This document shows, in pieces, positions 21,959-61,379 of a stretch of 61,485 nucleotides of DNA; positions within the stretch are counted from its first letter, which is position 1, and each line of letters begins with the position of its first letter. Location: the IMG/VR virus record IMGVR_UViG_3300037067_026753; one strand, given 5' to 3'. The position numbers were made by a program, and so were the translations under genes. This DNA is from a virus. The notes beneath the pieces were generated by a model. That model saw nothing but the letters and a program-made list of their open reading frames with translations, ran no database searches and was not told where the DNA came from.

Positions 21959-21971
21959 ATCTGAACTCCTT

Positions 21972-44495: not shown

Positions 44496-44848
44496 ACCAG
44501 AAGAATATAAATTTCTAACTTCGTCAACTTAAAAAATCTTTTACATTTGACGCACTGATATTTTTCAATACCAAAAGTATTTGATGTTATTTTTTTTCTA
44601 GTACCTATTAAATAAGATTTCTTTAAATTTTTACTTGCATTATGTTTTCTTTTTATATCTTTAATATAAAACACAATATTTTTCTTAGAATATCCTTTTT
44701 TTATGATTTCTGTCAACAGCAAACCAGACAAATACAAGCTTTTAATTTCTTGTATTTTATTTTTTGACAAAACGCAAAATTTTTTGTGTTGTTTAAAACC
44801 AGTTAAATTCTTTAGGATTTTACCACATTTATTGCATACAAAACTCAT
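44474..44848 (-). CDS. C2H2-like zinc-finger small protein
   Basis: CNKCGKILKNLTGFKQHKKFC. Confidence 0.4.
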   Translation of the reverse strand: MSFVCNKCGKILKNLTGFKQHKKFCVLSKNKIQEIKSLYLSGLLLTEIIKKGYSKKNIVFYIKDIKRKHNASKNLKKSYLIGTRKKITSNTFGIEKYQCVKCKRFFKLTKLEIYILLVCLLVKL

Positions 44849-44868
44849 ATTTTTACTCGTTAAAAAAC

Positions 44869-44940
44869 TGGGGTAGAAGGATTTGCACCTCCGACACCCG
44901 GCTCCAAGGGCCAGCGTTCTTCTACTGAACTATACCCCAA
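44869..44940 (-). tRNA. tRNA-Gln (anticodon TTG) with a non-canonical anticodon loop CCUUGGA
   Basis: Cloverleaf folds by hand, with a U1-A72 pair and G73 as expected for Gln. Anticodon stem CTGGC/GCCGG. Position 33 is C. Confidence 0.6.
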
Positions 44941-44953
44941 TAAATTTCAAACT

Positions 44954-45026
44954 AGCCACAAAGAGACTTGAACTCTTAACCTACAGTTTAGGAAACTGTG
45001 ACTCTATCCAATTGAGCTATGTGGCT
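44954..45026 (-). tRNA. tRNA-Arg (anticodon CCT)
   Basis: Acceptor AGCCACA/TGTGGCT, anticodon loop TTCCTAA, T-loop TTCAAGT. Confidence 0.8.
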
Positions 45027-45031
45027 AAAAA

Positions 45032-45108
45032 TGGTCGGAACGAGCAGAGTTGAACTGCTGACCCCCTGCACCCCATGCAGGTGCGCTACCAGGCTGCGCC
45101 ACGTTCCG
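45032..45108 (-). tRNA. tRNA-Pro (anticodon GGG), CCA encoded
   Basis: Acceptor CGGAACG/CGTTCCG, anticodon loop ATGGGGT (as I remember E. coli proL), T-loop TTCAACT, 3'-terminal CCA. Confidence 0.8.
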
Positions 45109-45126
45109 TTGTTCAAAGAACTTAAA

Positions 45127-45201
45127 TCGGAGTGAGTGGATTTGAACCACCGGCCTTGTGATCCCGGATCACACGTTCTAACCAGGCTGAACTACACTCC
45201 G
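45127..45201 (-). tRNA. tRNA-Pro (anticodon CGG) with C33
   Basis: Acceptor CGGAGTG/CACTCCG, anticodon stem TGTGA/TCACA, loop TCCGGGA (C at position 33). Confidence 0.65.
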
Positions 45202-45205
45202 TATT

Positions 45206-45280
45206 CTGGGGTGAGAAGACTTGAACTTCTAACTTCTGGTTTCAGAGACCAGCGTTCTAAACCAATTGAACTACACCCCA
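45206..45280 (-). tRNA. tRNA-Gln (anticodon CTG)
   Basis: Acceptor TGGGGTG/CACCCCA (U1-A72, G73), anticodon loop CTCTGAA. Confidence 0.8.
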
Positions 45281-45286
45281 ATAAAA

Positions 45287-45364
45287 TGGTCGGGATGAGA
45301 GGATTTGAACCTCCGACACCTGCGTCCCAGGCGCAGTGCTCTAACCAGACTGAGCTACATCCCG
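45287..45364 (-). tRNA. tRNA-Pro (anticodon TGG) with C33, CCA encoded
   Basis: Acceptor CGGGATG/CATCCCG, anticodon stem CTGCG/CGCAG, loop CCTGGGA. Confidence 0.65.
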
Positions 45365-47398: not shown

Positions 47399-48068
47399 TT
47401 AAAGTATTACATTTTTTCTCTCCTTTTTTGTTTTAGAAATTTTCTCCCTTACTTCTTTTCTCTTGGAAACATTGTTTTCACCACTTATTAAAATTTTTCT
47501 TTGTGGATTATTTTTCCAAAAATTTAAGACTGCTTTTGAAATATTTTGTTTTTGTTCTATTGTTCTTTTTCTTCCTCTTAAAATAAATTTAGGTTTGCCT
47601 TTTTGTTTTTTAGACGCATGCGACATTTTTTGTCTAGTAATTTCTGTCGGTTTTCTACCAGACATTGCAAGACTCACTTTTTTCTTGCGCTGTTCTGTCC
47701 AAGGAGATTTTATAAAACAATCTTTTTTCCCATTCGCAGTATCTTCTTTATACTTACTTCTAATTTCTTCTCTTCGCGGATTATTTGAAAAACAATCGCC
47801 CCCATCACCACCTTTTGTTATATCCAACAGGTGCTCTTGAATTAAGAAACTCTATCCAATATTTTTCTCTTTCATTTAGCTGATCTACTTGACATTCTTC
47901 TATAATATCTTTTCGAAAATTTTCTTGGCCATATTTTATTATTGCTTTTCGTATAAGTATACCTGATCCATAATATTGAATATTATACTTTAATTCTTTC
48001 CCGATATAAATTTTGCCATTCAAAAGATTTGTAATTTTATAAATTACGCTTAAACTTGCCATAATCAT
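47399..48068 (-). pseudogene. GIY-YIG homing endonuclease interrupted by a frameshift
   Basis: ORF 47805..48068 encodes the GIY-YIG domain (IYKITNLLNGKIYIGK...YYGSG...REKYWIE...N). ORF 47399..47827 encodes the lysine-rich NUMOD-like C-terminal half. The two ORFs overlap by 23 nt in different frames. Confidence 0.55.
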
Positions 48069-49084
48069 CTTTTTCTAAGTGTTCGTTCATAATCTTCAAA
48101 ACGTATTTTTGCGATTTTTGAACGCTGTTCTGTTCGAACTACAACTCCTTCAGGTTTTCCCAATGCATCATTTTCAAGCAAAGCGTTTGACATGCCCGGG
48201 AGCAGATTTTTCAACCAATCATAAGTCCCTTGAATGGTTTGTGGTGGACATGCTCCAATAATAGAAGGCACTATTAGACATCTTATATCTGCTGCTACAC
48301 TTGCAATTGTTCTGACTCCAACAAAATTTTGTCCCCCATTATCTCTCCAAGCAGCTATTTTTTCTATGGGCAAATCAAGTAAATCTTCAAACTCTTTTGC
48401 TTCCATCATTATGACATCAAACAACCTGAAACCAAGTTTCCCTGTTTTTGTATAATTTTTTGCCGTTCCTGCTTTACCCCCATAAACTTCCCCAAATAAT
48501 ACAAAAACAGATTGTTCAAGTTGGTCCCAGTAAATTCTTCTTGCATTGTCAGCCACAGTTTGAATTGTATCAACAATATCTAATGTAGGATTATGAATCC
48601 AATCTCCAAAACCATAAAGAAGTTCTTCACGAGAACCAATTAGATATGTCCCTTTAGGAAACAAAATAATACGAGCATTTGTACCATCAATTTTCTCAGA
48701 AAGAAAAATTTCGTCATCTGCTGAAAAAGATACAAGAACTTCTTCTTTCAAAGAACCTCTATCCCCAAGAGCATGATATGTAAGAATACTTGGGTATTTT
48801 GTAGCCGAATTGATTTTTTTCAAATCAAAAGCTCGCATATTCACACAATATTTACCATAATCAGGATTATGTTTCTTCATAATGTCGTATGTTGCCGGTC
48901 TTACTTTCCAGCCTACATTGTCGCAATTACCACAAGCTATACTCATGCTCATAGCAGCTACATCACCTGGCATAATTTCTTCGCTATTACAATTAGAACA
49001 AGTCATTACTACAAATGCTGACGGTGGACAAATCTTACCCTCATGCTTTATACCACAAAAAATACAATGCTTAGCTTCACTCAT
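48065..49084 (-). CDS. ATP-dependent RNA ligase (Rnl2-like nucleotidyltransferase) with an N-terminal zinc finger
   Basis: Motif I EKIDGTNARI (compare Rnl2 KIHGTN). N-terminal Cys clusters CIFCG...CP, CSNCNS and CGNCDN. Confidence 0.55.
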   Translation of the reverse strand: MSEAKHCIFCGIKHEGKICPPSAFVVMTCSNCNSEEIMPGDVAAMSMSIACGNCDNVGWKVRPATYDIMKKHNPDYGKYCVNMRAFDLKKINSATKYPSILTYHALGDRGSLKEEVLVSFSADDEIFLSEKIDGTNARIILFPKGTYLIGSREELLYGFGDWIHNPTLDIVDTIQTVADNARRIYWDQLEQSVFVLFGEVYGGKAGTAKNYTKTGKLGFRLFDVIMMEAKEFEDLLDLPIEKIAAWRDNGGQNFVGVRTIASVAADIRCLIVPSIIGACPPQTIQGTYDWLKNLLPGMSNALLENDALGKPEGVVVRTEQRSKIAKIRFEDYERTLRKR

Positions 49085-49871: not shown

Positions 49872-50696
49872 TCAATCCACGAATTTTACATTTGCCCTTG
49901 CACGTGCTTTGGATTCAGTATTGACAAGTACTTTATGCCATACGCTTCCAAGATTCACAGTAGCATGTTCTTCATGCGAAATTTTGCCCTTGGCATACAC
50001 ATTGGGATCAGCCATCATAGAACGGTAACGCTTTGCACTATCAGGTTGCTCTTTTAAGAGCTTTTGATAATCTTTCACTTCAATAACGTTACTCCCAAGA
50101 ACATAAACTTGTCTTCCACCTACTCTGTACAAAAATTCAGCATAGTGAAAGTGAGAACCTCCACCTCTCATCGGTTCGTTCTTCCAGACTTTTGTCAAGT
50201 TCCCTTTGGGCGGCTCAAAATTCGGTTGAGGAACAAACATGAATTCGCCTTGACGGTGAATTTTCTTTCCCGACTTCAAAAGACGGTGTCTCTTATGCGC
50301 ATTCTTTTTGTTGACACCCTCTTTCGATTCAATGTCAATAAGTTCTTTGGGTTTTAAAGCTTGTTTGGCACCAATTACCGTAGTAACTCTTGAAGATTCA
50401 GGGATAGCACAAGTGAACCAGTGACGTTCATCATGTCCACAAAGAAATTTCGACTTGATTTCGCTTGTCTTATCGCCTTTTCTGTTGATAACAGGTACTT
50501 TTGTCATCAAAAGCAAATGTCTGTCAGCTTTTTGAGCATCAAGAATCAACATTTCTATTTCTTTTGTGACTTGAAGCTCAAAATACTCGCCTTCACTGTC
50601 TCTTCTGACATCAATAGAAAAACCATCTCTACGTGGCTCAATGACTTTTACTCGAGCCCCGATTGCTTCGAATTTCTTTTCGATTGTTGTTGTCAT
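49872..50696 (-). CDS. Hypothetical protein (274 aa)
   Basis: ORF from the supplied track. Confidence 0.5.
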   Translation of the reverse strand: MTTTIEKKFEAIGARVKVIEPRRDGFSIDVRRDSEGEYFELQVTKEIEMLILDAQKADRHLLLMTKVPVINRKGDKTSEIKSKFLCGHDERHWFTCAIPESSRVTTVIGAKQALKPKELIDIESKEGVNKKNAHKRHRLLKSGKKIHRQGEFMFVPQPNFEPPKGNLTKVWKNEPMRGGGSHFHYAEFLYRVGGRQVYVLGSNVIEVKDYQKLLKEQPDSAKRYRSMMADPNVYAKGKISHEEHATVNLGSVWHKVLVNTESKARARANVKFVD

Positions 50697-51142
50697 ATAA
50701 CCTCTAAATAAAGCGTGCTTCCAATAAATTTTTCAAGAACTTTACCATGATCAAAAGCAAGATCAGGTAAATTATTTATATCAAAAAATTCAAGTTTCCT
50801 TGCATCATCTTTAGCTTTAGGCTCACCAGTGCATCTATGTACATAATAAACATGATCTATCACATGTCCTCTTGGATCTCTTTTGGGATCAGAATTGACC
50901 ATGAATAATTCAAGATGTCTGGGCTCCACAACTAAATTTGTTTCTTCATAAAACTCCCTTGCTCCTGCAACCTCCAAACTTTCTTGATCACAGTTCAAAA
51001 ATCCACCCGGTAATGCCCACATACCAACAAAGGGTTCATGATCTCTCTGAATCAACAAAATTTTATTTGTTTTGTTTGTAGTCATGTAAATCAAACTAGC
51101 AGTCGAAGCTGCATTTTTAAAATCATGAATATCAGTTGGCAT
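50693..51142 (-). CDS. Nudix hydrolase
   Basis: Nudix box GGFLNCDQESLEVAGAREFYEETNLVV (Gx5Ex7REUxEExGU). Confidence 0.8.
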   Translation of the reverse strand: MPTDIHDFKNAASTASLIYMTTNKTNKILLIQRDHEPFVGMWALPGGFLNCDQESLEVAGAREFYEETNLVVEPRHLELFMVNSDPKRDPRGHVIDHVYYVHRCTGEPKAKDDARKLEFFDINNLPDLAFDHGKVLEKFIGSTLYLEVI

Positions 51143-51705: not shown

Positions 51706-51990
51706 ATGCAAATCTCAAAAGCATCAGATGATCTTTATCGTATTGTTATTACCTTCGACGCAAAAGAAGACACAGATGTTGCACGACAAACATGTTTCTT
51801 CCAATTAAGAGATTTGAATAATATTTACAAAATCAAACCAAGAGGAAAACAAAGAGTCAAATCAATAACTATTGAGCCGTTCAATAAAAAGAAACTAGAG
51901 CCCAAAGGCCCTAGTCCCGATCGAGACACACGTTCCAATAGATGTAGTCAACCCAAGTCTCGTGCGGTATCTCAGCATCGAGCCTCCTGA
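51706..51990 (+). CDS. Possible small plus-strand protein
   Basis: AAGGAAA RBS before the ATG at 51706. The 3' end runs antisense into the HNH gene, so the true extent is uncertain. Confidence 0.3.
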   Translation: MQISKASDDLYRIVITFDAKEDTDVARQTCFFQLRDLNNIYKIKPRGKQRVKSITIEPFNKKKLEPKGPSPDRDTRSNRCSQPKSRAVSQHRAS

Positions 51991-52465
51991 CAACCTGAAT
52001 TGGTGCGGATTTGCTAAGACGAGGAATATAAGGTTTCCTTATCAAATCCCTTTTATAGTTCTTAACATGCTTGCAACCTTTTTGCCCATTGCATCTTATG
52101 CAGCTCACTACAATGTTGTCCCACCAAGTCTTACCGCCGTCTTGCCGTGGAATTACATGGTCAAACGTGAAATTTGAAAGAGTAACCTTCTTACCGCAAT
52201 ACATGCAACATCCAGCATCTCTGAGATAAACATTTTTCCTTGTAAAAGGAAGCACGTTTGTAAAATGCTTTGGTACATAGTCAGAGTCAATGCACTTGAT
52301 CACTGAAGGTATCGGCATTACAAAATTTACTCCACAGAATTTCTGCTCATAGTTTTCTAAAGCAATAGCTCTCTGTGTTGAGACTAATGCAATAGCCCTA
52401 CGAGTTGAGACAATTGAAACTGGGATCATACCGATATTGAGCATTAAAGTTTGCATAATGGACAC
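51911..52465 (-). CDS. HNH endonuclease
   Basis: CMYCGKKVTLSNFTFDHVIPRQDGGKTWWDNIVVSCIRCNGQKG. Confidence 0.7.
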   Translation of the reverse strand: MSIMQTLMLNIGMIPVSIVSTRRAIALVSTQRAIALENYEQKFCGVNFVMPIPSVIKCIDSDYVPKHFTNVLPFTRKNVYLRDAGCCMYCGKKVTLSNFTFDHVIPRQDGGKTWWDNIVVSCIRCNGQKGCKHVKNYKRDLIRKPYIPRLSKSAPIQVVRRLDAEIPHETWVDYIYWNVCLDRD

Positions 52466-52534: not shown

Positions 52535-53410
52535 TTAAATGCCCAAGGCCGGGGTCGAACCGACATGAGACTCAGTCTCGGCAGGTCTTAAGCCTGCAGT
52601 GTCTCCCAATTTCACCACTTGGGCTCGAAAATTATCTGAATCAAAAGTAAAATATTGCTTTAAATTATGGCCTTCTGTAATTAATTTTATATAGTTGTCA
52701 ATTGGAATATTTCTTCTTCTAAAAAACTTAATAATCTCAAGCAATGTTTCATAAAAAATTACTCTAATCACATAACCATTATTTTTAAAAGCTTCTACAA
52801 CTTTATCAACATGAGACCCTCGAAAACCTTTTATTTCATATAGCTTGCCTTCAATATCAAAATCATTTATTCTTGTCGATCCATTATACTGCACTCTTAT
52901 ATTCTCATAATCAAATTTAATGTGTTTATAAACTAGATAAAGAGCAAAAATAAACTCAAAAGTGCTTCTCAAAAGAACTTTTTTGTTATTAAAGATAAAA
53001 TAAGAATATTTTCCTCTACCAATTCCTTTTGCAGGTGTCAACAAACCTTGAGCATATAATTTTTTTCTAGTTTCTGATTGTTTTATATGTGCAGGATGAT
53101 TTTTAGTTTTTGATCTTTCTATGCTTGCTTTGACAAAAGGGTTATTAAAACCTATTTTTTTTAATCTTATTGAATTCGCTTCACTTATACGTCGTATCGC
53201 TTCTGATGTTTGCTTTGTTAACCCTTTTGCCCATGCTCTTTTTTTGTCCAATTGTTTTGTCGGAATTCTTCCTTCTTTATGTGCTTTCTTAATTGCTTCA
53301 GAATTTTTCTTCCTTATTTTTGGACAAGAGTTCCACGAGTTTGAACAACACCATTTCTTATTACTTAACTGAAACTTTGCTTCTTGTTCGCATCCATATT
53401 CGCACTGCAT
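52535..53410 (-). CDS. Putative homing-endonuclease-like protein (N-terminal zinc finger, basic repeats, C-terminal D..E.K motif)
   Basis: N-terminal CEYGCE...CCSNSWNSCP, a lysine-rich middle, and DFDIEGKLYEIKG (PD-(D/E)xK-like). The 3' end reads through the tRNA-Leu gene, so the true stop is uncertain. Confidence 0.4.
   Translation of the reverse strand: MQCEYGCEQEAKFQLSNKKWCCSNSWNSCPKIRKKNSEAIKKAHKEGRIPTKQLDKKRAWAKGLTKQTSEAIRRISEANSIRLKKIGFNNPFVKASIERSKTKNHPAHIKQSETRKKLYAQGLLTPAKGIGRGKYSYFIFNNKKVLLRSTFEFIFALYLVYKHIKFDYENIRVQYNGSTRINDFDIEGKLYEIKGFRGSHVDKVVEAFKNNGYVIRVIFYETLLEIIKFFRRRNIPIDNYIKLITEGHNLKQYFTFDSDNFRAQVVKLGDTAGLRPAETESHVGSTPALGI
52540..52624 (-). tRNA. tRNA-Leu (anticodon TAA), type II
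   Basis: Acceptor GCCCAAG/CTTGGGC, anticodon loop CTTAAGA, long variable arm, T-loop TTCGACC. Confidence 0.8.
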
Positions 53411-53490
53411 GCTTACTCCTTTTATTAGAAGTAAGCATATAAAAACTTTAATAATTAAGACTGTTGTGTATGCCTTACATAAGCTTAAAA

Positions 53491-54114
53491 TTACCCTTTG
53501 CGTTGGTGTGCTAATTTCCTAAAACTAAATTTGTCGTACCCGTGCGATTCAGCTTTCAACTTGTCTGAAATCGGCCATGGCTCTTTTTCTTTATTTGTCA
53601 AAACTCCACTTATAAACTGCTGTACCTTTTGAAACATAGTAAATGGGTCAATGATTTTTTCAAAATTAAAGTTTTTAAGACAAGAGTCTTTTTCGTTAAA
53701 CATTTGTCTATTGCATTTTTCTTGTTGCGTAATAATCGGCGTTCTATACTTTATATGCTCATTAAACAACTTTTCAGAAATTTCAATTTTAAAATCTGTC
53801 TCAATGTACTTGTTCCGTTTAATCAATTCTTCATAATATTTTGCGTTAGCAGTTCTAATAGCTTGTATAAATGATTCTACTTCATAGTAATACTTATCTT
53901 CATAATACAAACCTTTATAAACAGTCCCACAAACAGAAACTTTAAACTTTCTTACAAGTTCACGATCATAATAAAAAAATCGTTCAAATGCAGATTTATC
54001 ATTAAAAATGTCTTCTTTAATTTCTTCTGTTTTACGTTTATAAACAATGGACTTATCTATACCAAATGTCTTGATGGTATCATAATAATCATGAAATTTC
54101 GAAACAATCAACAT
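53491..54114 (-). CDS. Hypothetical protein
   Basis: The likely start is MLIVSK at 54114, with an AAGGAAAT RBS. The tracked ORF extends to 54159. Confidence 0.5.
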   Translation of the reverse strand: MLIVSKFHDYYDTIKTFGIDKSIVYKRKTEEIKEDIFNDKSAFERFFYYDRELVRKFKVSVCGTVYKGLYYEDKYYYEVESFIQAIRTANAKYYEELIKRNKYIETDFKIEISEKLFNEHIKYRTPIITQQEKCNRQMFNEKDSCLKNFNFEKIIDPFTMFQKVQQFISGVLTNKEKEPWPISDKLKAESHGYDKFSFRKLAHQRKG

Positions 54115-54132
54115 GATGATTTCCTTAACAAA

Positions 54133-54204
54133 TAGCGGGGGAGAGAATCGAACTCCCACTCTTTGGGTTATGAGCCCAATATCTTGCCATTAGAAGACCC
54201 CGCA
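54133..54204 (-). tRNA. Initiator-type tRNA-fMet (anticodon CAT)
   Basis: Positions 2-7 are GCGGGG, pairing with CCCCGC. Positions 1 and 72 are unpaired (U and U). The anticodon arm is TTGGG-CTCATAA-CCCAA with three G-C pairs next to the loop. It is near-identical to E. coli tRNA-fMet as I recall it. Confidence 0.7.
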
Positions 54205-55100
54205 AATTTCAAAGTATCTGACAATTTCAATAAGCACTTATCAATGTCTTTTTTTACTTCTGAAGCAGTAAAACGTAACACTTCCCAACCATTTGATTTA
54301 GACCAGTTATCTCGCTTCTGATCTTTTTGTTTTACTACATCAAGTTCATGACTCTTTCCATCAATCTCTACATCAACTTTTATATCAACAAAAGCAATGT
54401 CATATTCATAAATTCCAATTTGATATCTTGCTGTCCATCCAGATATATTATTTTTAATTAAAGCTTGTTTAAATAATTCTTCGACATAAGAAAGTTTTGA
54501 ACTGTGATATAAACGATAAGGTAATCTATCAGGGTGTTCGCTAAAAAACTTAATTGCATGTTTTGAAATTTTTTGTTTTGCTTGTTCTGACAAATGTACT
54601 TTCTTTTTACAATTTTTCAAAGCGATTCTAATAAGTTCGACACCAAATAACTTTCTAAGCTCTTCTTTTGATTCTCCAAGTTCCCATCTGTTTTTGATAT
54701 TCTGTATAATATTTGGATAATTTTTGATTAAATATGCTGCACATTTTTTCTTGTGCTTTGAAAAATTCCCTTTATTGAAATCTCTACCACAAACACACTG
54801 TACTTGCTCTCTAAATCCATAAAAACCTATTTTTGTCGATTTCTTTCTTTTGCAACTTGCATGAGAACATTTTTGACTTTCACTTATTGTTCTTTTTGGA
54901 GTGTTCCTTAGAGCATAAACTATAATTTTTTTAGAAATTAGTCCTTCTTGTCGAATTTCATTTATAGACATACCAGAATTGTATTTTTTAACAATCTCAT
55001 CATAACTATCAATTGACAAATTACATCTTGAATTATGTTGAGTACAACCTGATTTTGTATTGAAACTCCTATTACATTTTTTGCAAAAATACATATTCAA
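54168..55100 (-). CDS. Vsr/DUF559-like homing-endonuclease-like protein with N-terminal zinc fingers
   Basis: N-terminal CKKCNRSF...CTQHNSRC. C-terminal DVEIDGKSHELDVVKQKDQKRDNWSKSNGWEVLRF. Paralog of 43653..44495. The 3' end overlaps tRNA-fMet. Confidence 0.5.
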   Translation of the reverse strand: MNMYFCKKCNRSFNTKSGCTQHNSRCNLSIDSYDEIVKKYNSGMSINEIRQEGLISKKIIVYALRNTPKRTISESQKCSHASCKRKKSTKIGFYGFREQVQCVCGRDFNKGNFSKHKKKCAAYLIKNYPNIIQNIKNRWELGESKEELRKLFGVELIRIALKNCKKKVHLSEQAKQKISKHAIKFFSEHPDRLPYRLYHSSKLSYVEELFKQALIKNNISGWTARYQIGIYEYDIAFVDIKVDVEIDGKSHELDVVKQKDQKRDNWSKSNGWEVLRFTASEVKKDIDKCLLKLSDTLKFAGSSNGKILGS

Positions 55101-55102
55101 AA

Positions 55103-55432
55103 TTACTCAAAACGGTCACTGACATTCTTCCAGTCCTTACCATCCGTTCTTACTTTTCTTCTGCCCCACTTTTCAGCTTCCTTTGCTTGCAATCTAACAA
55201 GCAGCTTAGCTTCAGGCATTACTTGTATCATTCTTCGAGCCTCAGAAAATGAAACGCACAAATTTGCTTCAACCAATCTCTTAGGCTCTATTTTTTCCAT
55301 TTGACACCAACCATAAGATTTTCTTTCAAAAGCTATTCCACATTTTTCACACACTCTTATTTTATCGTCCTCGGCAATTTGATCACATGCCCACCCGCAC
55401 CGACATGTACAAGCATCACCTAACCAACTCAT
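55103..55432 (-). CDS. Cys-rich small protein (109 aa)
   Basis: CTCRCGWACD...CEKCG...C. Confidence 0.4.
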   Translation of the reverse strand: MSWLGDACTCRCGWACDQIAEDDKIRVCEKCGIAFERKSYGWCQMEKIEPKRLVEANLCVSFSEARRMIQVMPEAKLLVRLQAKEAEKWGRRKVRTDGKDWKNVSDRFE

Positions 55433-55671
55433 TTTTTACATTTCTGACATAAGTTATCAATATGATTTGTCATTTGCACGCATTTTTCACAAAACTCAAG
55501 TTCCATTTCTTTAATCTCGAGCACCCAACGCCATGCATATCTACATGTGCAATCAATACAATATAACCCGTTAGGGTCATTTGGCCACACAGGGCACAAC
55601 TTTGCGTCATCTTTTTCCTGAGCAACATCGCATTGCGCTATTGCTTGTTCTATTTGCTCTTTTGTTTTCAT
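55429..55671 (-). CDS. Cys-rich small protein (80 aa)
   Basis: CPVWPN...CIDCTCRYAW...CEKCVQMTNHIDNLCQKCKK. Confidence 0.4.
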   Translation of the reverse strand: MKTKEQIEQAIAQCDVAQEKDDAKLCPVWPNDPNGLYCIDCTCRYAWRWVLEIKEMELEFCEKCVQMTNHIDNLCQKCKK

Positions 55672-56366
55672 TTTTTCACGCCAAAAACACTATAATTGCC
55701 AAATGTTGGACGTTTAAAATATACGGTCATATCGGGTTCTAAACCCGTTTTCCTTACATATATTTCAAATTTACTGTCAAGCAAACTATGCAGCTCTTTT
55801 TCAGTATAATGCTTGACATGATATTTTACTATTTTATGATCAGGGTATCTTTCACCATTTGGAGTAGTAAAGCACCAGATACCATTGGGCTTCAAAACTC
55901 TATAAACTTCGCTAATTACTTTTTCAACCTCTTCAACATGTTCAAATGTTTCTACCGAAACAACAGTATCAAAAAGACTGTCAATTTCAGGGATTTGCTT
56001 GATATCCCCTACATCATATTTTATATTTAAAGCATTGTAATGTTCTTTTGCAAAATCAATACTTTCTTTATCGATGTCGTAACCATGTACTCTTAATGCT
56101 CTACTGGCAAGCATTTTTGTGCCCATGCCACAACCACAAGCAATATCGAGCACTAATTTGTTTTCAACTGCAACTAGAAATTCACGATACATTAAATCAT
56201 GGATGTCTATATTGCCCTGGCCAGCTTTACCTGCGTGTTCTGGGATTATTCGTTCGCCGGTATATTGCATTGTTCCCTCGGATCTATAACAATTCCACGT
56301 AGCGCATTTGCACAAATCGTACAAACTCCTGGAACAAGTGCAGAAGCTATACCTTGTTGATTGCAT
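55668..56366 (-). CDS. Class I SAM-dependent methyltransferase
   Basis: VLDIACGCGMGT (motif I), HGYDID, VVSVETFEHV, LKPNG. Confidence 0.65.
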   Translation of the reverse strand: MQSTRYSFCTCSRSLYDLCKCATWNCYRSEGTMQYTGERIIPEHAGKAGQGNIDIHDLMYREFLVAVENKLVLDIACGCGMGTKMLASRALRVHGYDIDKESIDFAKEHYNALNIKYDVGDIKQIPEIDSLFDTVVSVETFEHVEEVEKVISEVYRVLKPNGIWCFTTPNGERYPDHKIVKYHVKHYTEKELHSLLDSKFEIYVRKTGLEPDMTVYFKRPTFGNYSVFGVKK

Positions 56367-56570
56367 TGAGAACAGAGAATTTCCATATTACCATTCCTTA
56401 AATTTGGGATCGGAACGTATTTCTTCTACAAATTCTTTAAGATGTTCACAAGGCGGTTCTTCTTTTCCAATTCTCCAAGCAGCACCACAACTGGAACATA
56501 TAATTACGTTTGGAACAAGATCCCATTTTCTTATTGTTTTTTCAGCATTCAAAATAAAAGGCTCCAAAAA

Positions 56571-56654
56571 CGGAGGTACCAGGAATTGAACCTGGGGAGC
56601 TTTTCAGCTTTGCTTGTTTTCGAAACAAGGCCCTCGACCAACCGGACTACCTCC
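56571..56654 (-). tRNA. tRNA-Ser (anticodon CGA), type II, with an atypical acceptor/D-arm junction
   Basis: Acceptor GGAGGTA/TACCTCC, G73, anticodon stem CTTGT/ACAAG with loop TTCGAAA, long variable arm, T-loop TTCAATT. No U8 is identifiable by hand. Confidence 0.6.
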
Positions 56655-56676
56655 ATATATAGTTTCATTAACCTTA

Positions 56677-57003
56677 TTATTCGTCTATGCTAGACTGTGT
56701 CGTAGTTAACATTAGTTTGCATATATCCTGTATTAAAAGTTCTTCTTTTTCTCTAGCCTTTTCATAATGCTCATGTTTAAAACTATAAATCACTTGTGCC
56801 ATTGCTATATGGAGCACTTCGTGTACAAGATAATCTTCTGGTTCTTTTTCGTCAGAATACCACGTATAAACTGTTGCTTTCTTTGTTTTTACGTTCTTGC
56901 AACAGTGACCCTTATATTGACTATCAGAATCATACTCGATTTTCCAATCAGATAAAATTCTGATCTTCTTTACTATATTTGCTAATCTGTCTTCAGCTTT
57001 CAT
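56677..57003 (-). CDS. Hypothetical protein (108 aa)
   Basis: ORF from the supplied track. Confidence 0.4.
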   Translation of the reverse strand: MKAEDRLANIVKKIRILSDWKIEYDSDSQYKGHCCKNVKTKKATVYTWYSDEKEPEDYLVHEVLHIAMAQVIYSFKHEHYEKAREKEELLIQDICKLMLTTTQSSIDE

Positions 57004-57425
57004 TTCGTCAAGACCACTCTAACAACTTTATCAATTACGCCATTGGACACAAGTTTAAATTGCGGCATCCCCATTTCTTCTGCAAAAGGGTTACTATAAA
57101 AATTCATAAAGGAATTCTCATTAAAGAAATGGCAATGCTCTATGCACTCAACAGCTGATTCACTATGCCAATAAGGCACTTCTATTAAAAACACGCCTTT
57201 ATTTTCAAGTAAGTCATAGATATCTTTGATAATCTGTTTCAAAACTTTTGATGATTCGATATGTTCGAATACATGGCTCGCTTCAATATAACTAAATTTT
57301 CCTTCCAATTTAGGGAGCCCGTCATTCAAGTCCCACACTACATCAGCCCATTTGGGAACTATATCGACTCTAATTTTATCAGGTTCTGGTTTGCTATATG
57401 GTCCTTCACCCAACATTAAGCGCAT
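57000..57425 (-). CDS. Methyltransferase-domain-like protein, possibly truncated
   Basis: ASHVFEHIE and LLENKGVFLIEVPY resemble methyltransferase motifs II and III. No clear motif I. Confidence 0.4.
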   Translation of the reverse strand: MRLMLGEGPYSKPEPDKIRVDIVPKWADVVWDLNDGLPKLEGKFSYIEASHVFEHIESSKVLKQIIKDIYDLLENKGVFLIEVPYWHSESAVECIEHCHFFNENSFMNFYSNPFAEEMGMPQFKLVSNGVIDKVVRVVLTK

Positions 57426-57445
57426 ATTTTTACTCCAAATTTAAG

Positions 57446-57519
57446 AGACCCAGGGCGGATTTGAACCGACCGTAATGCTAGTTTTGCAGACTAGTGCCTT
57501 ACCGCTTGGCTACTGGGTC
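57446..57519 (-). tRNA. tRNA-Cys (anticodon GCA)
   Basis: Acceptor GACCCAG/CTGGGTC, discriminator U73 as expected for Cys, anticodon loop CTGCAAA, T-loop TTCAAAT. Confidence 0.75.
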
Positions 57520-57675
57520 ATGATATATTGTGTAATTCTTCAGCACATTCATAATAAACAGCTCGTTCGACATCAGTAATACAGCTAGACTGTGCTTTCT
57601 CAGTCCACTTCCTCACCAAATCATGGCAAGCATTTTTCAAAATTTGCAATTTATCTTTATCTGTCGACAAGTCTA

Positions 57676-58032
57676 TCATATTCGTTCATATACAAATTTG
57701 AATTTGTTTTGCTTATCTAATTTTTCTTCAGCTAATAAATAATCTTCTGGAAGAGACGCATTATTTATTGTCCCGTGTTTGCCAATAAACAAAATTTCTT
57801 TTAAAGTCGAATTAAGGTAAACATGAGCACCAAATAATGTTCCTATCAACTCACCATATCCAAGCTTAGAAAAAGTATCACTATCTGTATACGGATCAAA
57901 ACAATCAAGTAGATGATAGAGCAATTCTTGATGAATCTCTGCATTTATGCAAATAGATTCTACACGCTCATCTCCTATCTCGATTCGTGCAATGCCATCA
58001 ACAATTAATTTTCGTAATTTTTCTTTTTTCAT
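57676..58032 (-). CDS. Hypothetical protein (118 aa)
   Basis: ORF from the supplied track. Confidence 0.45.
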   Translation of the reverse strand: MKKEKLRKLIVDGIARIEIGDERVESICINAEIHQELLYHLLDCFDPYTDSDTFSKLGYGELIGTLFGAHVYLNSTLKEILFIGKHGTINNASLPEDYLLAEEKLDKQNKFKFVYERI

Positions 58033-58040
58033 AATTCAAA

Positions 58041-58113
58041 AGCCGATGAAGGGATTCGAACCCCCGACCTGCACATTACGAATGTATTGCTCTACCAACT
58101 GAGCTACATCGGC
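58041..58113 (-). tRNA. tRNA-Thr (anticodon CGT)
   Basis: Acceptor GCCGATG/CATCGGC, D-arm GCTC/GAGC, anticodon loop TTCGTAA (the stem has an A-C mismatch at 27-43), T-loop TTCGAAT. Confidence 0.6.
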
Positions 58114-58119
58114 AAAAAA

Positions 58120-58204
58120 TGGCGGAGGAAGAGGGACTCGAACCCCCAAGCCCTTTCGGGCGGCAGTTTTCAAGACTGCTCGTCTACCATTGACGTATTC
58201 CTCC
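58120..58204 (-). tRNA. tRNA-Ser (anticodon TGA), type II, CCA encoded
   Basis: Acceptor GGAGGAA/TTCCTCC, G73, anticodon stem GCAGT/ACTGC with loop CTTGAAA, variable arm CGCCCGAAAGGGCTT. Confidence 0.8.
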
Positions 58205-58209
58205 AAAAT

Positions 58210-58377
58210 TTACTTCTTTGCATACCTTTCGCTTTTTTCAGCATAAGGTAAACTATTTAATTCTACATCTAAATCAAACAAATGCCAGTTTTTACAACAA
58301 AAACATTCCTTTGATTTTGCCTTTGTGCAATCTAAACAGGTAAAAAGGCCGTTCCGTCTCTTATCTAATTCAGTCAT
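58210..58377 (-). CDS. Possible Cys-rich mini-protein (55 aa, not in the ORF track)
   Basis: My translation reads MTELDKRRNGLFTCLDCTKAKSKECFCCKNWHLFDLDVELNSLPYAEKSERYAKK. It lies between two tRNA genes. Confidence 0.3.
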   Translation of the reverse strand: MTELDKRRNGLFTCLDCTKAKSKECFCCKNWHLFDLDVELNSLPYAEKSERYAKK

Positions 58378-58425
58378 AAGAACCTCCCGTTTACCAGTAG
58401 ATTCTTATATACTTTTTAGAAAAAT

Positions 58426-58498
58426 TGTTAGCGAAAGGACTTGAACCTTCAACCGACAGATTATGATTCTGTTGCTCTACCAATTAAGCTACGCTAAC
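58426..58498 (-). tRNA. tRNA with CAT anticodon (elongator Met or Ile2/lysidine type)
   Basis: Acceptor GTTAGCG/CGCTAAC, A73, anticodon stem ACAGA/TCTGT with loop ATCATAA, T-loop TTCAAGT. Confidence 0.7.
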
Positions 58499-58784
58499 AT
58501 GACACTAAAAAACGCATTTTTGCGTGTTTATCCTCACTCTCAAGTTTTTTATTCTCGACAATCATAAACATATCTAACAAGGGTTCATATTGAACTTTCA
58601 ATTGTATTCTATCATTACAATCTATATAAACAGGTTTCTTAAAACTTTCTTGATAATGTCGTAAATTCACGGGGTCTCCTCCCCAATCTAATTTAAGTCT
58701 ATAGGGAGAATAATTAAACTGATGAGGATCGCCTTGGAGAACCTTTTTTACTTCATCAGATGACATATAACATCGAAAACTCAT
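58494..58784 (-). CDS. Hypothetical protein
   Basis: The tracked ORF starts at 58817, inside the tRNA-like locus. Internal Met 58784 is the likelier start. Confidence 0.4.
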   Translation of the reverse strand: MSFRCYMSSDEVKKVLQGDPHQFNYSPYRLKLDWGGDPVNLRHYQESFKKPVYIDCNDRIQLKVQYEPLLDMFMIVENKKLESEDKHAKMRFLVSC

Positions 58785-58790
58785 AAATTT

Positions 58791-59023
58791 TGCCCTTGGT
58801 GGGATTTGAACCCACATAACATTGATTAGAGTTCCTCTTTGGAAACGCGATTCCTGCCGCTGTTTACAAACCCTCCAAAGCTGTCGCCAGATCTTTGGCA
58901 GCGTATCAGTTCTGCCGCAACCATGGAACTCGCCTAAGAACAGTTTCCCGTTCGGTCAATGCCCTCCGTTAAGAGTCACGGTCCGTTTTTCCGAGTGCAC
59001 TTTCCATTTTATGCTACAAGGGC
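58791..59023 (-). ncRNA. tRNA-like gene whose perfectly matching acceptor halves are separated by an insert of about 160 nt (intron-containing tRNA or tmRNA-like RNA)
   Basis: The 5' part, GCCCTTG-TA-GCAT-AAAATGGAAA-GTGC, at 58996-59023 forms an acceptor 5' strand and a full D-arm. The 3' part, GTGGG-TTCAAAT-CCCAC-CAAGGGC-A, at 58791-58815 forms the T-arm and a 3' acceptor strand with 7/7 complementarity to the 5' strand. The interval between them is GC-richer than its surroundings. Confidence 0.5.
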
Positions 59024-59076
59024 CTAAAATTTAAAAATTGGTTGCATCTGAGTTATCAATGCTGTTTTTCTTTTTG

Positions 59077-59185
59077 ACAGTTCTTGAGACTGTTGCCTGA
59101 ACCAGTTCGGCTAACCCGGCACCCAATTGACATAAGCTCAGCCACAATCAACTGAGTGCCGGGTCTTGGATTTGAACCAAGATAA
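59077..59185 (-). ncRNA. Candidate circularly permuted tRNA-Leu(CAA)-like gene
   Basis: Reading the minus strand, the order is: T-arm CTTGG-TTCAAAT-CCAAG, then 3' acceptor strand ACCCGGC plus A, then a 33-nt linker, then 5' acceptor strand GCCGGGT, TA, D-arm GCC-GAACTGGTTCA-GGC, and the anticodon arm ACAGT-CTCAAGA-ACTGT. The acceptor halves are exactly complementary, and there are flanking A5/T5 tracts. Confidence 0.45.
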
Positions 59186-59240
59186 AAATGTAAGCACTAA
59201 TTGTTAAAAGATACAACCAATTAATTTCAAAGATCAAATT

Positions 59241-59326
59241 TGGCCAGAAAGGGACTTGAACCCTTACGGACCTCACGGTCCCTCGGATTTTGAGTCCGAG
59301 TTGTCTCCCGATTCCAGCATCTGGCC
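59241..59326 (-). tRNA. tRNA-Leu (anticodon CAA), type II
   Basis: Acceptor GGCCAGA/TCTGGCC, A73, D-loop GAATCGGGAGA, anticodon loop CTCAAAA, variable arm GGGACCGTGAGGTCCGT, T-loop TTCAAGT. Confidence 0.75.
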
Positions 59327-59644
59327 TATATCTGTATGTTCACCAACTCTTCTAAGCAAAGGTGGTGATTTCATTTCGACATATCTTTCATTACCTGTCT
59401 TTTTATCTTTAAATTTTTTATAATCCTGTCGCCAATTTCTAGGAATTATAGGTTCAAGTTTAGAATTAACTTGATTTATTTTTTCGATTTCATTTTCCGT
59501 TAAATTAACTTTACCATCTCGCAAAAAAGCAAATTTATTTTTAGTAGTTTTTTTCTTGATTTCTTCTAACTCTTTAAGTTCTACCTGTGTAGGTTCATGT
59601 TTTCGTAACCTGAAAATTGCTTCTAAATCTTCAACTTCAGCCAT
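59273..59644 (-). CDS. Hypothetical charged protein (123 aa)
   Basis: ORF from the supplied track. Its last 18 codons overlap tRNA-Leu(CAA). Confidence 0.4.
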   Translation of the reverse strand: MAEVEDLEAIFRLRKHEPTQVELKELEEIKKKTTKNKFAFLRDGKVNLTENEIEKINQVNSKLEPIIPRNWRQDYKKFKDKKTGNERYVEMKSPPLLRRVGEHTDIGQMLESGDNSDSKSEGP

Positions 59645-59787
59645 TTTATCTCCTGGCCAAAACAGCGACTTTTAAATATTGAATTAGCAATTTCATGAAT
59701 CAGACCTAATCTTTTTATTACAAAAGAATGACAATTGGAACATAAAAACCAAACATTGTCTCTTAAAAACTGAATTAGCAATTTATA

Positions 59788-59872
59788 TGGTGCCCAGGGG
59801 GAGACTTCAACTCCCACGCCTTTCGGCGCCAGGTCCTAAGCCTGGTGCGTCTAGCGATTCCGCCACCCGGGC
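59788..59872 (-). tRNA. tRNA-Leu (anticodon TAG), type II, CCA encoded, with a C19/G56 swap
   Basis: Acceptor GCCCGGG/CCTGGGC, anticodon stem CCAGG/CCTGG with loop CTTAGGA, variable arm CGCCGAAAGGCGT. The D-loop is GAATCGCTAGA (no GG), and the T-loop is TTGAAGT (G where C56 is expected). Confidence 0.7.
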
Positions 59873-59873
59873 A

Positions 59874-60083
59874 TTAATCTTGACATTCAATATCAATATG
59901 CTCAAAACTTTCTTCTTCACTTATAAAGAATGGACATCGCTCTTTTTCTTGTCCATAAGTTGTATCAGGCAATGTCCCTTTATGAAAAGAAATACAAAGA
60001 TCTAGATTTCTCGGACATTCAAAAGGTCTATATACTAAAACATCTAAAACAGTCCAATCCATCCGAGCATTTGTTTTATGCAT
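59874..60083 (-). CDS. Hypothetical small protein (69 aa)
   Basis: ORF from the supplied track. Confidence 0.3.
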   Translation of the reverse strand: MHKTNARMDWTVLDVLVYRPFECPRNLDLCISFHKGTLPDTTYGQEKERCPFFISEEESFEHIDIECQD

Positions 60084-60110
60084 ATCTTGTTCAATATCTC
60101 CATTTGTTCA

Positions 60111-60365
60111 TTAATTGTGAACAACATCAAAAGTTATATGCTCATAAACTTTTATTCGAATTGGATTATCTTTAAAAATTCTATCTGCTAAAATCTGGTA
60201 TCCCATCAACCTTCTGTATTTTTTTGGTTGCACCCACCAGTCTTTAGAAATAGTCGATTGTCTCCTAATTTCTTTATATACTTGTTTTATTTCCTTTTCA
60301 TATCCTTTTACATCATATTTGTTCATAAAAGACTTGAAGTTACCAAAACCTGCAGCCAAGTACAT
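60111..60365 (-). CDS. Hypothetical protein
   Basis: The tracked ORF runs to 60479, but its first 25 codons are the antisense of tRNA-Ser(GCT). An internal Met is the likelier start. Confidence 0.35.
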   Translation of the reverse strand: MYLAAGFGNFKSFMNKYDVKGYEKEIKQVYKEIRRQSTISKDWWVQPKKYRRLMGYQILADRIFKDNPIRIKVYEHITFDVVHN

Positions 60366-60405
60366 CAACAAAGCTTTAAACCAATCGCCTTGTTTTATTA
60401 AAATA

Positions 60406-60487
60406 CGGAGAGACGGGGATTCGAACCCCGAAGTCCTTTCGGACGCAAGTTTAGCAAACTTGTTGCTTCCCGTTAGCATATCTCTCC
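60406..60487 (-). tRNA. tRNA-Ser (anticodon GCT), type II
   Basis: Acceptor GGAGAGA/TCTCTCC, G73, anticodon stem CAAGT/ACTTG with loop TTGCTAA, variable arm CGTCCGAAAGGACTT, T-loop TTCGAAT. Confidence 0.8.
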
Positions 60488-60496
60488 AAATCTCTT

Positions 60497-61192
60497 TTAT
60501 TCTTTCCTTACGCCTTCAATCTGCAAATTCGGGAACTGAGTTCGAACATCATTCAACAAATCATCCAAATCCTTGCCGAGAGCTTTCTTTGTAAGTGTCG
60601 CTTTGGCTCTACGGAGCAGACGATCTGTCTGTTCGAGTCTTCTCTCAAGTTCGGAAATCTGTTTATTGACTTCATATTTTTGTTTTGTCAAGTCTTCTCT
60701 GTCCTGCACAAGTTTTACTAAATGCTCATCGAAAGGAGCCTCAACAAAAAATGTTACGGCATTATTAAGAGTATTTCGATCCATTTCTTTATTCGTAATG
60801 GTAAGTGAAACCACTACTATATTGTCGCGATTTTCATGAGTTGGATCATATACAAGTCGTGGACGTCTTTTCTTTGGGAGTATATTGCCGTCGGTTATTT
60901 CTGTACTGATCACAGCTGCAGGCGTCAATAGCTTCAATGTATCGGTCAAAGTTCGAATTTGTGAATCAAATTTCTCTTGGACAAATTTTTCCATGTAGCT
61001 GTCAGCATCTTTATCTGCTTGCTCGACTCGTTTTGTCAGTTGTTCGCTCTGTTGTTTGAGCGTAGTAATTTGATTCTCGATAAGTTGTTCTTGCTCGGTC
61101 ACGAGCACGTCAAAAATGTCTTTGATATCGAGGCTCATGTCGACCTTGAGTTTTGAATCAGTAGCTTTAAAGACACTTGGTAACTCATTCAT
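60497..61192 (-). CDS. Hypothetical coiled-coil protein (231 aa)
   Basis: ORF from the supplied track; heptad-rich and charged. Confidence 0.5.
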   Translation of the reverse strand: MNELPSVFKATDSKLKVDMSLDIKDIFDVLVTEQEQLIENQITTLKQQSEQLTKRVEQADKDADSYMEKFVQEKFDSQIRTLTDTLKLLTPAAVISTEITDGNILPKKRRPRLVYDPTHENRDNIVVVSLTITNKEMDRNTLNNAVTFFVEAPFDEHLVKLVQDREDLTKQKYEVNKQISELERRLEQTDRLLRRAKATLTKKALGKDLDDLLNDVRTQFPNLQIEGVRKE

Positions 61193-61268
61193 AAATACTC
61201 CTTTTTAAAGTAATACAAGAGAATCATTAGAGTATTTATAACAAGTGTTTTGTGTAATATTTAAAAAA

Positions 61269-61340
61269 CATGGATGGAGGGACTTGAACCCCCAACCGTC
61301 GGTTTTGGAGACCGGTGCTCTACCATTGAGCTACATCCAT
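61269..61340 (-). tRNA. tRNA-Trp (anticodon CCA)
   Basis: Acceptor ATGGATG/CATCCAT, G73, D-arm GCTC-AATGGTA-GAGC, anticodon loop CTCCAAA, T-loop TTCAAGT. Confidence 0.75.
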
Positions 61341-61379
61341 ATAAAATTGCCATTAGCTGCTTTTTATAATTCAAAAGAA

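Follow-up and report, generated by a model that had tools for sequence, protein, structure and literature searches.

A phage tRNA-gene island whose changing spacers hold homing-endonuclease-like genes and tRNA-mimic RNAs

What keeps a row of phage tRNA genes in order while the DNA between them changes from one relative to the next? The question is raised by positions 52535-61340 of the IMG/VR virus record IMGVR_UViG_3300037067_026753, a stretch of 61,485 nucleotides (nt) that is analysed here at its full length and called the window. In this island, tRNA genes alternate with small open reading frames (ORFs), endonuclease genes and aberrant tRNA-like loci, and a preliminary description of the DNA had suggested that the tRNA genes are both targets and shuttles for the endonucleases. 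We put at roughly 70% the probability that the island is a conserved tRNA backbone with spacers that carry homing endonucleases, small genes, RNA-related genes and tRNA-mimic RNAs, and that undergo exchange by homing like that of the T4 endonuclease SegB. The island and its relatives present nuclease domains, coding selection, presence and absence of genes at conserved junctions, breakpoints in tRNA genes and one cassette inside a tRNA gene.

The window has a G+C content of ~33%, almost all of its genes lie on the minus strand, and its products include a DnaE-type DNA polymerase III alpha subunit, NAD synthase, ThyX and an AAA ATPase. Searches of sequenced phages (INPHARED, by megablast and tblastn) returned no close relative of the window, the nearest relatives of its DnaE being only ~30% identical. 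A 60.8-kb ENA contig matches the window region, and metagenomic contigs of up to 424 kb carry a protein identical to that of ORF 52535-53410. Given this protein on such contigs and the DnaE-type polymerase, we read the window as part of a huge phage genome and the region as a hyperplastic tRNA-gene island. Scans with the island methyltransferase and a nearby RNA ligase found four useful related contigs: IMGVR_UViG_3300048599_000816 (loci L001, L003 and L016), Ga0116157_10001003 (L021), the 7.3-kb contig Ga0105098_10001993 (L019) and a 1.2-kb fragment (L020). L019 is the closest relative, 87-94% identical to the window. A locus search with the window's DUF559 nuclease, described below, found no relatives.

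The backbone comprises 11 minus-strand tRNA genes at 52540-61341, exactly those named in the preliminary description, as found by ARAGORN with the agreement of Rfam (whose sole match to the Ser-cga gene is a sub-threshold tRNA-Sec):
52540-52624, minus strand: tRNA-Leu(UAA) (ARAGORN; Rfam 46 bits; kept in L001 and L021)
54132-54205, minus strand: initiator-like tRNA-Met(CAU), fused to the 3' end of a DUF559 gene (ARAGORN and Rfam)
56570-56655, minus strand: tRNA-Ser(CGA) (ARAGORN)
57445-57519, minus strand: tRNA-Cys (ARAGORN and Rfam)
58041-58113, minus strand: tRNA-Thr(CGU) (ARAGORN and Rfam)
58120-58204, minus strand: tRNA-Ser(UGA) (ARAGORN and Rfam)
58425-58499, minus strand: tRNA-Met/Ile(CAU) (ARAGORN and Rfam)
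59241-59326, minus strand: tRNA-Leu(CAA) (ARAGORN and Rfam)
59788-59872, minus strand: tRNA-Leu(UAG) (ARAGORN and Rfam)
60405-60488, minus strand: tRNA-Ser(GCU), the allele disrupted in L019 by a DUF559-plus-tRNA cassette (ARAGORN)
61268-61341, minus strand: tRNA-Trp (ARAGORN and Rfam)

What marks the tRNA-Met at 54132-54205 (tRNA-fMet below) as initiator-like is an anticodon stem with GGG/CCC and a mismatch at 1:72. Six more tRNAs form a second cluster at 44867-45364. The interleaving of tRNAs with ORFs was found as described: only the spacer from Ser-tga to Thr (6 nt) is empty, and each of the others contains a non-coding RNA or between one and six ORFs. Overlaps between ORFs and tRNA or tRNA-like ends, which had earlier cast doubt on gene boundaries, are real for 54168-55100, 52535-53410, 59273-59644, 60111-60479, 58494-58817 and 53491-54159. 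Scanning the island for sigma-70 promoters and terminators gave nothing above chance.

Against this backbone the spacers stand out. The order Trp, Ser-gct, Leu-tag, Leu-caa, Met, Ser-tga, Cys, Ser-cga, methyltransferase, Leu-taa is common to the window, L001 and L021, and L019 retains the stretch from Ser-gct to the methyltransferase without intact Ser-tga and Thr genes, only the 5' 33 nt of its tRNA-Thr being kept. The spacers differ nearly everywhere between the window and its relatives. In L001, neighbours in the row Val, Trp, Ser-gct, Leu-tag and Leu-caa are separated by 5-75 nt, whereas each of the matching gaps in the window contains an ORF. From the methyltransferase to tRNA-Leu(UAA) there are ~200 nt in L021 and ~3 kb in the window, where two Cys-rich genes, a DUF559 gene, tRNA-fMet, a 207-aa (amino acid) ORF and a second nuclease gene are found. 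An insert at 61223-60494 (730 nt, with a 231-aa ORF) is missing from L019, in which the flanks are 90-98% identical.

Four classes of nuclease gene occur in the window, namely zinc-finger plus DUF559, zinc-finger plus another PD-(D/E)XK domain, GIY-YIG and HNH, and five of the genes need to be introduced here:
54168-55100, minus strand: zinc-finger plus DUF559 (Vsr-like PD-(D/E)XK) free-standing homing-endonuclease-like gene (Pfam, motif, homologues)
43653-44848, minus strand: frameshifted zinc-finger plus DUF559 gene, beginning 19 nt past tRNA-Gln (Pfam)
52535-53410, minus strand: homing-endonuclease-like gene with an N-terminal Cys4 finger and a C-terminal PD-(D/E)XK domain (PHROG, alignment, AlphaFold model)
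51911-52465, minus strand: HNH endonuclease (Pfam HNH_5, E 4e-14; 71-72% identical in L001 and L021)
47399-48068, minus strand: GIY-YIG homing-endonuclease-like gene in two ORFs (SegE_GIY-YIG; paralogue of 19386-20165)

The preliminary description had counted two HNH and two GIY-YIG genes, and the second members of these pairs are 15522-16106, a weakly supported HNH gene, and 19386-20165, an intact GIY-YIG gene with NUMOD3. Its further claim that the density of such genes is unusually high did not hold. T4 has about 15 homing-endonuclease genes in 169 kb, and the seven homing-endonuclease-like genes in 61 kb seen here are T4-like rather than exceptional.

Two or three of these proteins had also been called DUF559 paralogues. 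This stands for 43653-44495 (37.6 bits) and 54168-55100 (46.8 bits, E 2.9e-12), which pass the Pfam gathering threshold for DUF559 (PF04480, 20.6 bits), as do L019 201-944 and L001 5756-6703; it does not stand for 52535-53410, which falls short of the threshold and belongs to another nuclease family. The part common to 43653-44495 and 54168-55100 is only the nuclease core of ~70 aa, at 30% identity, and the catalytic motif D..ExDG..H is present in both. The ORFs 44474-44848 and 43653-44495 are one frameshifted gene, whose L003 counterpart is a single 430-aa ORF. By our reading of its sequence, 54168-55100 probably has, on the N-terminal side of the nuclease, a pair of C2H2-like zinc fingers with a helical segment after each. 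The ratio of nonsynonymous to synonymous substitution rates (dN/dS) is 0.24 for 54168-55100 and 0.14 for 43653-44848. In Rhizobium and Leptolyngbya phages, proteins homologous to the DUF559 domain carry the annotation "homing endonuclease protein", and others occur in T4-like phages and in 735-kb phages.

The protein of 52535-53410 matches a PHROG "endonuclease" (E 1.6e-4), and in an alignment of 16 homologues its E..D..ExK columns are invariant. An AlphaFold (AF2) model built from these homologues (pLDDT 82.9) was matched by Foldseek solely to PD-(D/E)XK nucleases (XisH, Bax1, I-Bth0305I, TnsA and the DUF559-like 3hrl), with weak E-values of 0.02-0.1, and a sequence search against the PDB gave chance kinase matches only. 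Its helical repeats appear to us to resemble NUMOD3 motifs, with no Pfam match.

If the DUF559 genes were ordinary structural genes they should be found in every relative, and they are instead sporadic: each site that could be compared is occupied in some genomes and empty in others. The one at the tRNA-Gln/Ogg junction has an intact frame in L001/L003 and a frameshift in the window, and in L021 there is a 77-nt spacer in its place. The site next to tRNA-fMet is empty in L001 and L021; a 61%-identical copy of 54168-55100 lies in L001 at 2823-3719, fused to a tRNA-Met between tRNA-His and tRNA-Tyr, and the fused tRNA-Mets of the window and L001 have only their acceptor ends in common. The gene 52535-53410 is absent from L001 and L021 at an otherwise syntenic site upstream of Leu-taa, L019 lacks it as well, and GIY-YIG 47399-48068 is absent from L001 and L021. 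Endonuclease genes repeatedly abut or overlap tRNA 5' ends (54168-55100, 52535-53410, L001 2682-3743), and units of an endonuclease gene plus a tRNA can be delimited at 54132-55100 in the window, 2682-3779 in L001 and 98-944 in L019.

The L019 unit is, as far as sequence can tell, the decisive case for endonuclease genes that would behave as mobile elements. In L019, the 5' 35 nt of a tRNA-Ser(GCU) of the window type remain, cut within the anticodon. There follow a different, complete tRNA-Ser(GCU), a 247-aa gene for a Cys4 finger plus DUF559 (E 7e-9), what is left of the old tRNA at its 3' end and, downstream, the conserved ORF. The catalytic motif of this DUF559 gene is intact, and the gene is directly flanked by breakpoints inside tRNA genes. 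When the cassette was compared with known phages, only the tRNA-Ser matched. Between the fingers of the L019 enzyme and of 52535-53410 the identity is 58%, and we therefore take DNA-binding and nuclease modules to have been shuffled. The proposal that tRNA genes would act as both targets and shuttles is supported by the presence and absence of genes at conserved junctions, by breakpoints inside tRNA genes and by this endonuclease-plus-tRNA cassette.

Cleavage specificity and homing itself we infer by analogy with known systems. During co-infection, an endonuclease would cut within or at the edge of a tRNA gene of a relative without the endonuclease gene. In the repair that follows, the endonuclease gene would be copied along with the tRNA and cassette next to it, and the co-converted tRNA, being a sequence variant, would replace the cut allele. 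Conserved tRNA genes would double in this way as cleavage targets and as repair homology. The closest precedent is SegB of T4, a GIY-YIG endonuclease encoded between tRNA genes that recognises a conserved T-arm motif, cuts inside T2L tRNA genes, is inherited by ~100% of progeny and co-converts 1.25 kb including tRNA genes and small ORFs (PMC2330249). Like segB, the endonuclease genes of the island are free-standing among phage tRNA genes and absent from close relatives. In T4 the tRNA genes are cleaved and neighbouring tRNA genes and small ORFs co-converted, and the same would apply to the island. The island differs in that its main nucleases are of the zinc-finger plus DUF559 type and a second PD-(D/E)XK type rather than GIY-YIG, several overlap the 5' end of a tRNA, and the L019 cassette brings a replacement isoacceptor. 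SegB-like homing in phage tRNA clusters is already known, and on its sequence the island would be another supported case. It would be a natural example, from uncultured huge phages, in which an endonuclease gene sits with a replacement tRNA inside the displaced tRNA gene; it would extend the SegB-type process to zinc-finger plus DUF559 nucleases, and it would explain mosaic phage tRNA arrays and the ORFs that gene callers place across tRNA genes.

Two intron-encoded enzymes, I-Bth0305I and I-Ssp6803I, have the restriction-endonuclease fold in common with the island nucleases, and I-Bth0305I is among the best structural matches of 52535-53410. I-Ssp6803I is associated with a tRNA-fMet gene. In contrast to both, the genes of the island are free-standing, with zinc-finger or NUMOD-like modules and no intron.

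Several observations weigh against homing as the cause of this exchange. The comparison rests on four contigs, three of them 60-80% identical, and with so few genomes each change could be a gain or a loss. No tRNA remnants lie beside the endonuclease genes of the window, HNH 51911-52465 is present in every relative that covers its site, and some of the DUF559 genes, with dN/dS values of 0.14-0.24, may have been domesticated. Cassettes without a nuclease, such as 60497-61192, likewise come and go, and since some of the flux has no nuclease gene next to it, ordinary recombination at conserved tRNA sequences could contribute part of the mosaic. The mosaic might even be due wholly to ordinary recombination between co-infecting relatives, with tRNA genes and regulatory motifs as anchors and the nuclease genes as passengers or relics, comparable to the hyperplastic regions of T4-type phages. 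The clean nuclease-free differences between the window and L019, the frameshifted or split state of two of the seven nuclease genes in the window and the lack of tRNA remnants there all fit such an explanation. What makes it unlikely is the L019 gene, which has an intact motif and is flanked by breakpoints within tRNA genes, the recurrent placement of endonuclease genes at tRNA 5' ends and the precedent of SegB, by which such enzymes do drive exchange (PMC2330249). That the DUF559, PD-(D/E)XK and HNH proteins are domesticated phage enzymes for host DNA degradation, repair or packaging, placed in a tRNA operon for the timing of their expression, would suit the dN/dS values and the HNH gene kept at 71-72% identity, but is very improbable in view of the presence and absence of DUF559, GIY-YIG and 52535-type genes at syntenic junctions, the frameshifted copies in the window, and the zinc-finger and NUMOD3-type DNA-binding modules typical of homing endonucleases.

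Two features of the nuclease genes deserve separate mention. Neither 54168-55100 nor 52535-53410 has a stop codon before its downstream tRNA (54132-54205 and 52540-52624, respectively). The former reaches 38 nt into tRNA-fMet at its 3' end, and the latter reads through the whole of tRNA-Leu(UAA), its final 30 codons being tRNA, whereas its homologues terminate at ~263-279 residues, short of where the tRNA starts here. Processing of the tRNA 5' ends by RNase P would strip the stop codon from both endonuclease mRNAs, and expression might be limited as a result. Elsewhere, the sole plus-strand block of the window, 18748-20165, comprises a 208-aa ORF, weakly similar to the C-terminus of ThyX, and after it the intact GIY-YIG plus NUMOD3 gene, and sits 1.6 kb from the minus-strand thyX gene at 16153-17151; this endonuclease gene may be travelling with a copy of its own target.

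A further question is what the two aberrant tRNA-like loci of the island are. For the one placed at 59077-59185, the preliminary description was right about its aberrant, tRNA-like nature and wrong about its boundaries, the true extent being 59052-59203. It belongs to a family with these members:
59052-59203, minus strand: Y-RNA-like tRNA mimic of the window (fold, covariation, model score 139.5 bits, Ro60-linked homologues)
L001 7643-7782 and 7838-7977, L019 2558-2699, L021 3268-3407 and 3533-3671: Y-RNA-like copies
L029 2774-2893, L031 2779-2901, L032-L037 at about 1100-1400: Y-RNA-like copies

From 5' to 3', the window element consists of a leader strand, a T arm (CTTGG-TTCAAAT-CCAAG), the 3' acceptor strand, a linker, the 5' acceptor strand, U8 and A9, a D arm, a 5-bp anticodon stem with the 7-nt loop CUCAAGA, and a trailer that pairs with the leader. 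The acceptor-like stem is closed into a hairpin of 7+10 bp. The same structure comes out of RNAfold, at a z-score of -5.7. At the same site L019 has one copy and L001 and L021 have two in tandem each, and the acceptor stems of these copies differ yet remain complementary. Among 15 distinct copies, 23 of 38 pairs are compensatory (including all five of the anticodon stem and six of the eight in the terminal helix) and 97.5% of cells are paired; this alignment was fitted to the covariance model, and a MAFFT-based count gave a like picture. A pattern search of IMG/VR with the anticodon arm found only two other contigs, in which the element stands immediately upstream of a TROVE plus Ro60-vWA gene. 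With the covariance model, one or two copies were found 100-400 nt upstream of Ro60, on the same strand, at all eight distinct Ro60 loci of ~85-kb phages.

For the element at 59052-59203 the best reading is a YrlA-type Y RNA in which an anticodon arm is retained. The signature of that type is seen in the order of T arm, closed acceptor and D arm and, for its homologues, in the linkage to Ro60, the yardstick being a gene on the same strand within about 4 kb. YrlA RNAs have no anticodon loop, and a terminal helix takes the place of the anticodon stem (PMC4201824; bioRxiv 10.1101/312249). The mimic is like them in the order of its parts, in the pairing of its two ends with each other and in having homologues <0.4 kb upstream of Ro60 (TROVE) on the same strand, and for both a dimeric-tRNA origin is plausible. 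It is unlike them in its full anticodon arm with a 7-nt loop, in a terminal helix that leaves from the position of the variable arm, and in lacking the GNCGAAN0-1G motif and carrying TTACAT, which is invariant in all Y-RNA-like copies. Over the part of the genome covered by the window, no Ro60 gene accompanies the window copy, no TROVE match being found among ORFs of at least 400 aa or by tblastn, and in the relatives of the window too the copies sit inside tRNA arrays away from any Ro60 gene. Rfam gave no match to the family. Its anticodon arm, the position of its helix, the missing motif and the lack of an Rfam match lead us to regard it as a variant that would work like YrlA and not as a member. 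TTACAT could mark where the RNA is processed or bound, or be left over from a first tRNA. In the Ro60 phages, a motif, TTGTGTAG-N8-9-T(T)ACATCAT, precedes each tRNA gene and Y-RNA-like element (L017 8200-8450, minus strand).

The region 20001-22000 of the window, at 45% G+C versus ~33% elsewhere, encodes a VWA-domain protein (20218-21108) and an isochorismatase-like protein (21017-21958). These two were checked as a split Ro60 and rejected.

The anticodon-like loop varies among copies: it reads CAA in the window, CAU in L019 and UAG, UGA, UUU or ACG elsewhere, and the anticodon arm of the L019 mimic is identical to that of the neighbouring tRNA-Met. It is a tentative idea, and one we hold to be rather doubtful, that the permuted elements of the window, its relatives and the Ro60-linked loci form a Y RNA class of their own, so far undescribed, with mimicry that extends over the entire tRNA and takes in the anticodon arm; they would then serve as decoys, tethers or sensors for proteins that read anticodon loops or, at the extreme, as two-piece tRNAs. 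The acceptor stem and anticodon-like loop are swapped even between near-identical phages. If the idea were right, host anticodon nucleases and tRNA repair enzymes would be candidate partners. The mimic may matter more than the homing result: Ro60-linked mimics with an anticodon arm could help to show what such Y RNAs bind, and the family would connect phage tRNA islands with tRNA damage and repair.

Permuted tRNA genes invite a different explanation of 59052-59203. Circularly permuted tRNA genes are found in Cyanidioschyzon merolae, other algae and Thermofilum. As in those genes, the 3' half is encoded first, upstream of the 5' half, and a short linker lies between the acceptor strands. RNase P and 3' trimming might on this account yield a chargeable tRNA in two pieces or ligated, and the covarying 7-bp acceptor stem, the CCA encoded right after the discriminator base in L029, L031, L032 copy 2 and L037 copy 2, the cleavage by RNase P and addition of CCA in vivo known for Mycobacterium smegmatis YrlA, and the RNA ligase gene at 48065-49084 can all be cited for it. 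The acceptor of the window type, however, extends as a 17-bp closed hairpin without CCA, the Ro60-adjacent copies L035, L036 and L032 copy 1 have a 4-nt acceptor loop and no CCA, L033 and the second L021 copy (L021b) have 6-nt loops, and the discriminator base does not track the anticodon, G73 occurring with both UGA and UUU. The algal and Thermofilum genes, moreover, give contiguous tRNAs by way of a bulge-helix-bulge and a splicing endonuclease, whereas the setting here is a bacteriophage, the break is in the variable region and many copies are unable to give a CCA end. A chargeable split tRNA is in general unlikely, and for the window element in particular we think it improbable, in preference for the Y RNA with a retained anticodon arm.

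The other aberrant locus proved to be what it had been taken for, a tRNA-like RNA, and a conserved one:
58791-59023, minus strand: tRNA-like RNA with a ~175-nt structured insert replacing the anticodon arm (sequence, fold, conservation in L019)

Its acceptor stem, D arm and T arm are canonical, and the insert includes two hairpins with GNRA loops. The L019 counterpart (about 2700-2935) lacks one GAAA-capped hairpin; its identity to the window RNA is ~96%, as against 87% in the flanks, and a core of >100 nt does not vary at all. L001 and L021 have their second Y-RNA-like copy where the window has this RNA. Rfam gave no match at E up to 10. A 20-mer from the RNA is absent from IMG/VR, and among GTDB genomes it had two matches, with only the 20-mer in common and about the chance number in 596 Gb, and no other homologues. 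Three identities were tried and rejected: a tRNA with a group I intron, for which Rfam gave nothing at the same cutoff; an anticodon-loop intron, which ARAGORN models only poorly and in conflict with the substitutions in L019; and a tmRNA, for which the tmRNA mode of ARAGORN finds nothing, the acceptor pair being C3-G70 and not G3:U70.

The small ORFs of the spacers, including the Cys-rich ones pointed out in the preliminary description, are real genes. Ten of them align as proteins with relatives at 59-93% identity, and dN/dS is 0.05-0.34 in the nine tested, as compared with 0.08 for the adjacent methyltransferase. Searches of Pfam, PHROG and PADLOC with these ten matched no described family. 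The protein genes of the island other than the nucleases are as follows:
53491-54159, minus strand: ORF, phrog_4243 (E 8e-20), with a likely start at 54114 giving 207 aa, after the gene call in L025; no homologue in the relatives
55103-55432, minus strand: 109-aa Cys-rich protein (L020 70% identical; C-terminal remnants in L001 and L021)
55429-55671, minus strand: 80-aa Cys-rich protein (85% identical in L019, 76% in L020; dN/dS 0.055)
55668-56366, minus strand: SAM-dependent methyltransferase, the conserved anchor gene (Methyltransf_11, E 8e-23; 94% identical in L019, 72% in L001 and L021)
56388-56567, minus strand: 59-aa CxxC protein (93% identical in L019; dN/dS 0.08)
56677-57003, minus strand: 108-aa ORF (68% identical in L021)
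57000-57425, minus strand: 141-aa methyltransferase-like ORF (Methyltransf_23 and phrog_6636; no homologue in the relatives)
57518-57679, minus strand: 53-aa ORF (77-82% identical and syntenic in L001 and L021; dN/dS 0.12)
57676-58032, minus strand: 118-aa ORF, in the window only
58210-58377, minus strand: 55-aa Cys-rich protein (60-62% identical and syntenic in L001 and L021; dN/dS 0.12)
58494-58817, minus strand: ORF of ~96 aa with a likely start at 58784, the part upstream of which is the T arm of the tRNA-like RNA (86% identical in L019; dN/dS 0.34)
59273-59644, minus strand: 123-aa ORF whose 3' end enters tRNA-Leu(CAA) (59-63% identical to L019 over residues 1-81; dN/dS 0.20; absent from L001 and L021)
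59874-60083, minus strand: 69-aa ORF (81% identical in L019; dN/dS 0.11; absent from L001 and L021)
60111-60479, minus strand: ORF of 84-122 aa, its start uncertain (93% identical in L019; dN/dS 0.20; absent from L001 and L021)
60497-61192, minus strand: coiled-coil ORF of 231 aa, which has its own ribosome-binding site and forms a clean cassette (missing from L019 and L001)

The gap from Ser-gct to Leu-tag is 6 nt in L001 and L021, without the ORFs of 59874-60479. The two Cys-rich genes that are adjacent in the window are nested in L020, where the homologue of the 109-aa ORF (723-1226) is interrupted in frame by 246 nt that encode, in another frame, a homologue of the 80-aa ORF. In the relatives, a Thg1-like enzyme, of a family for tRNA 5'-end repair or guanylyltransfer, is encoded within the tRNA island at L001 9309-10010 and L021 5160-5858, where the window has a 59-aa ORF, and the window has the RNA ligase gene at 48065-49084 and a NUDIX gene at 50693-51142; taken together, these three suggest that tRNA repair is a theme of the island.

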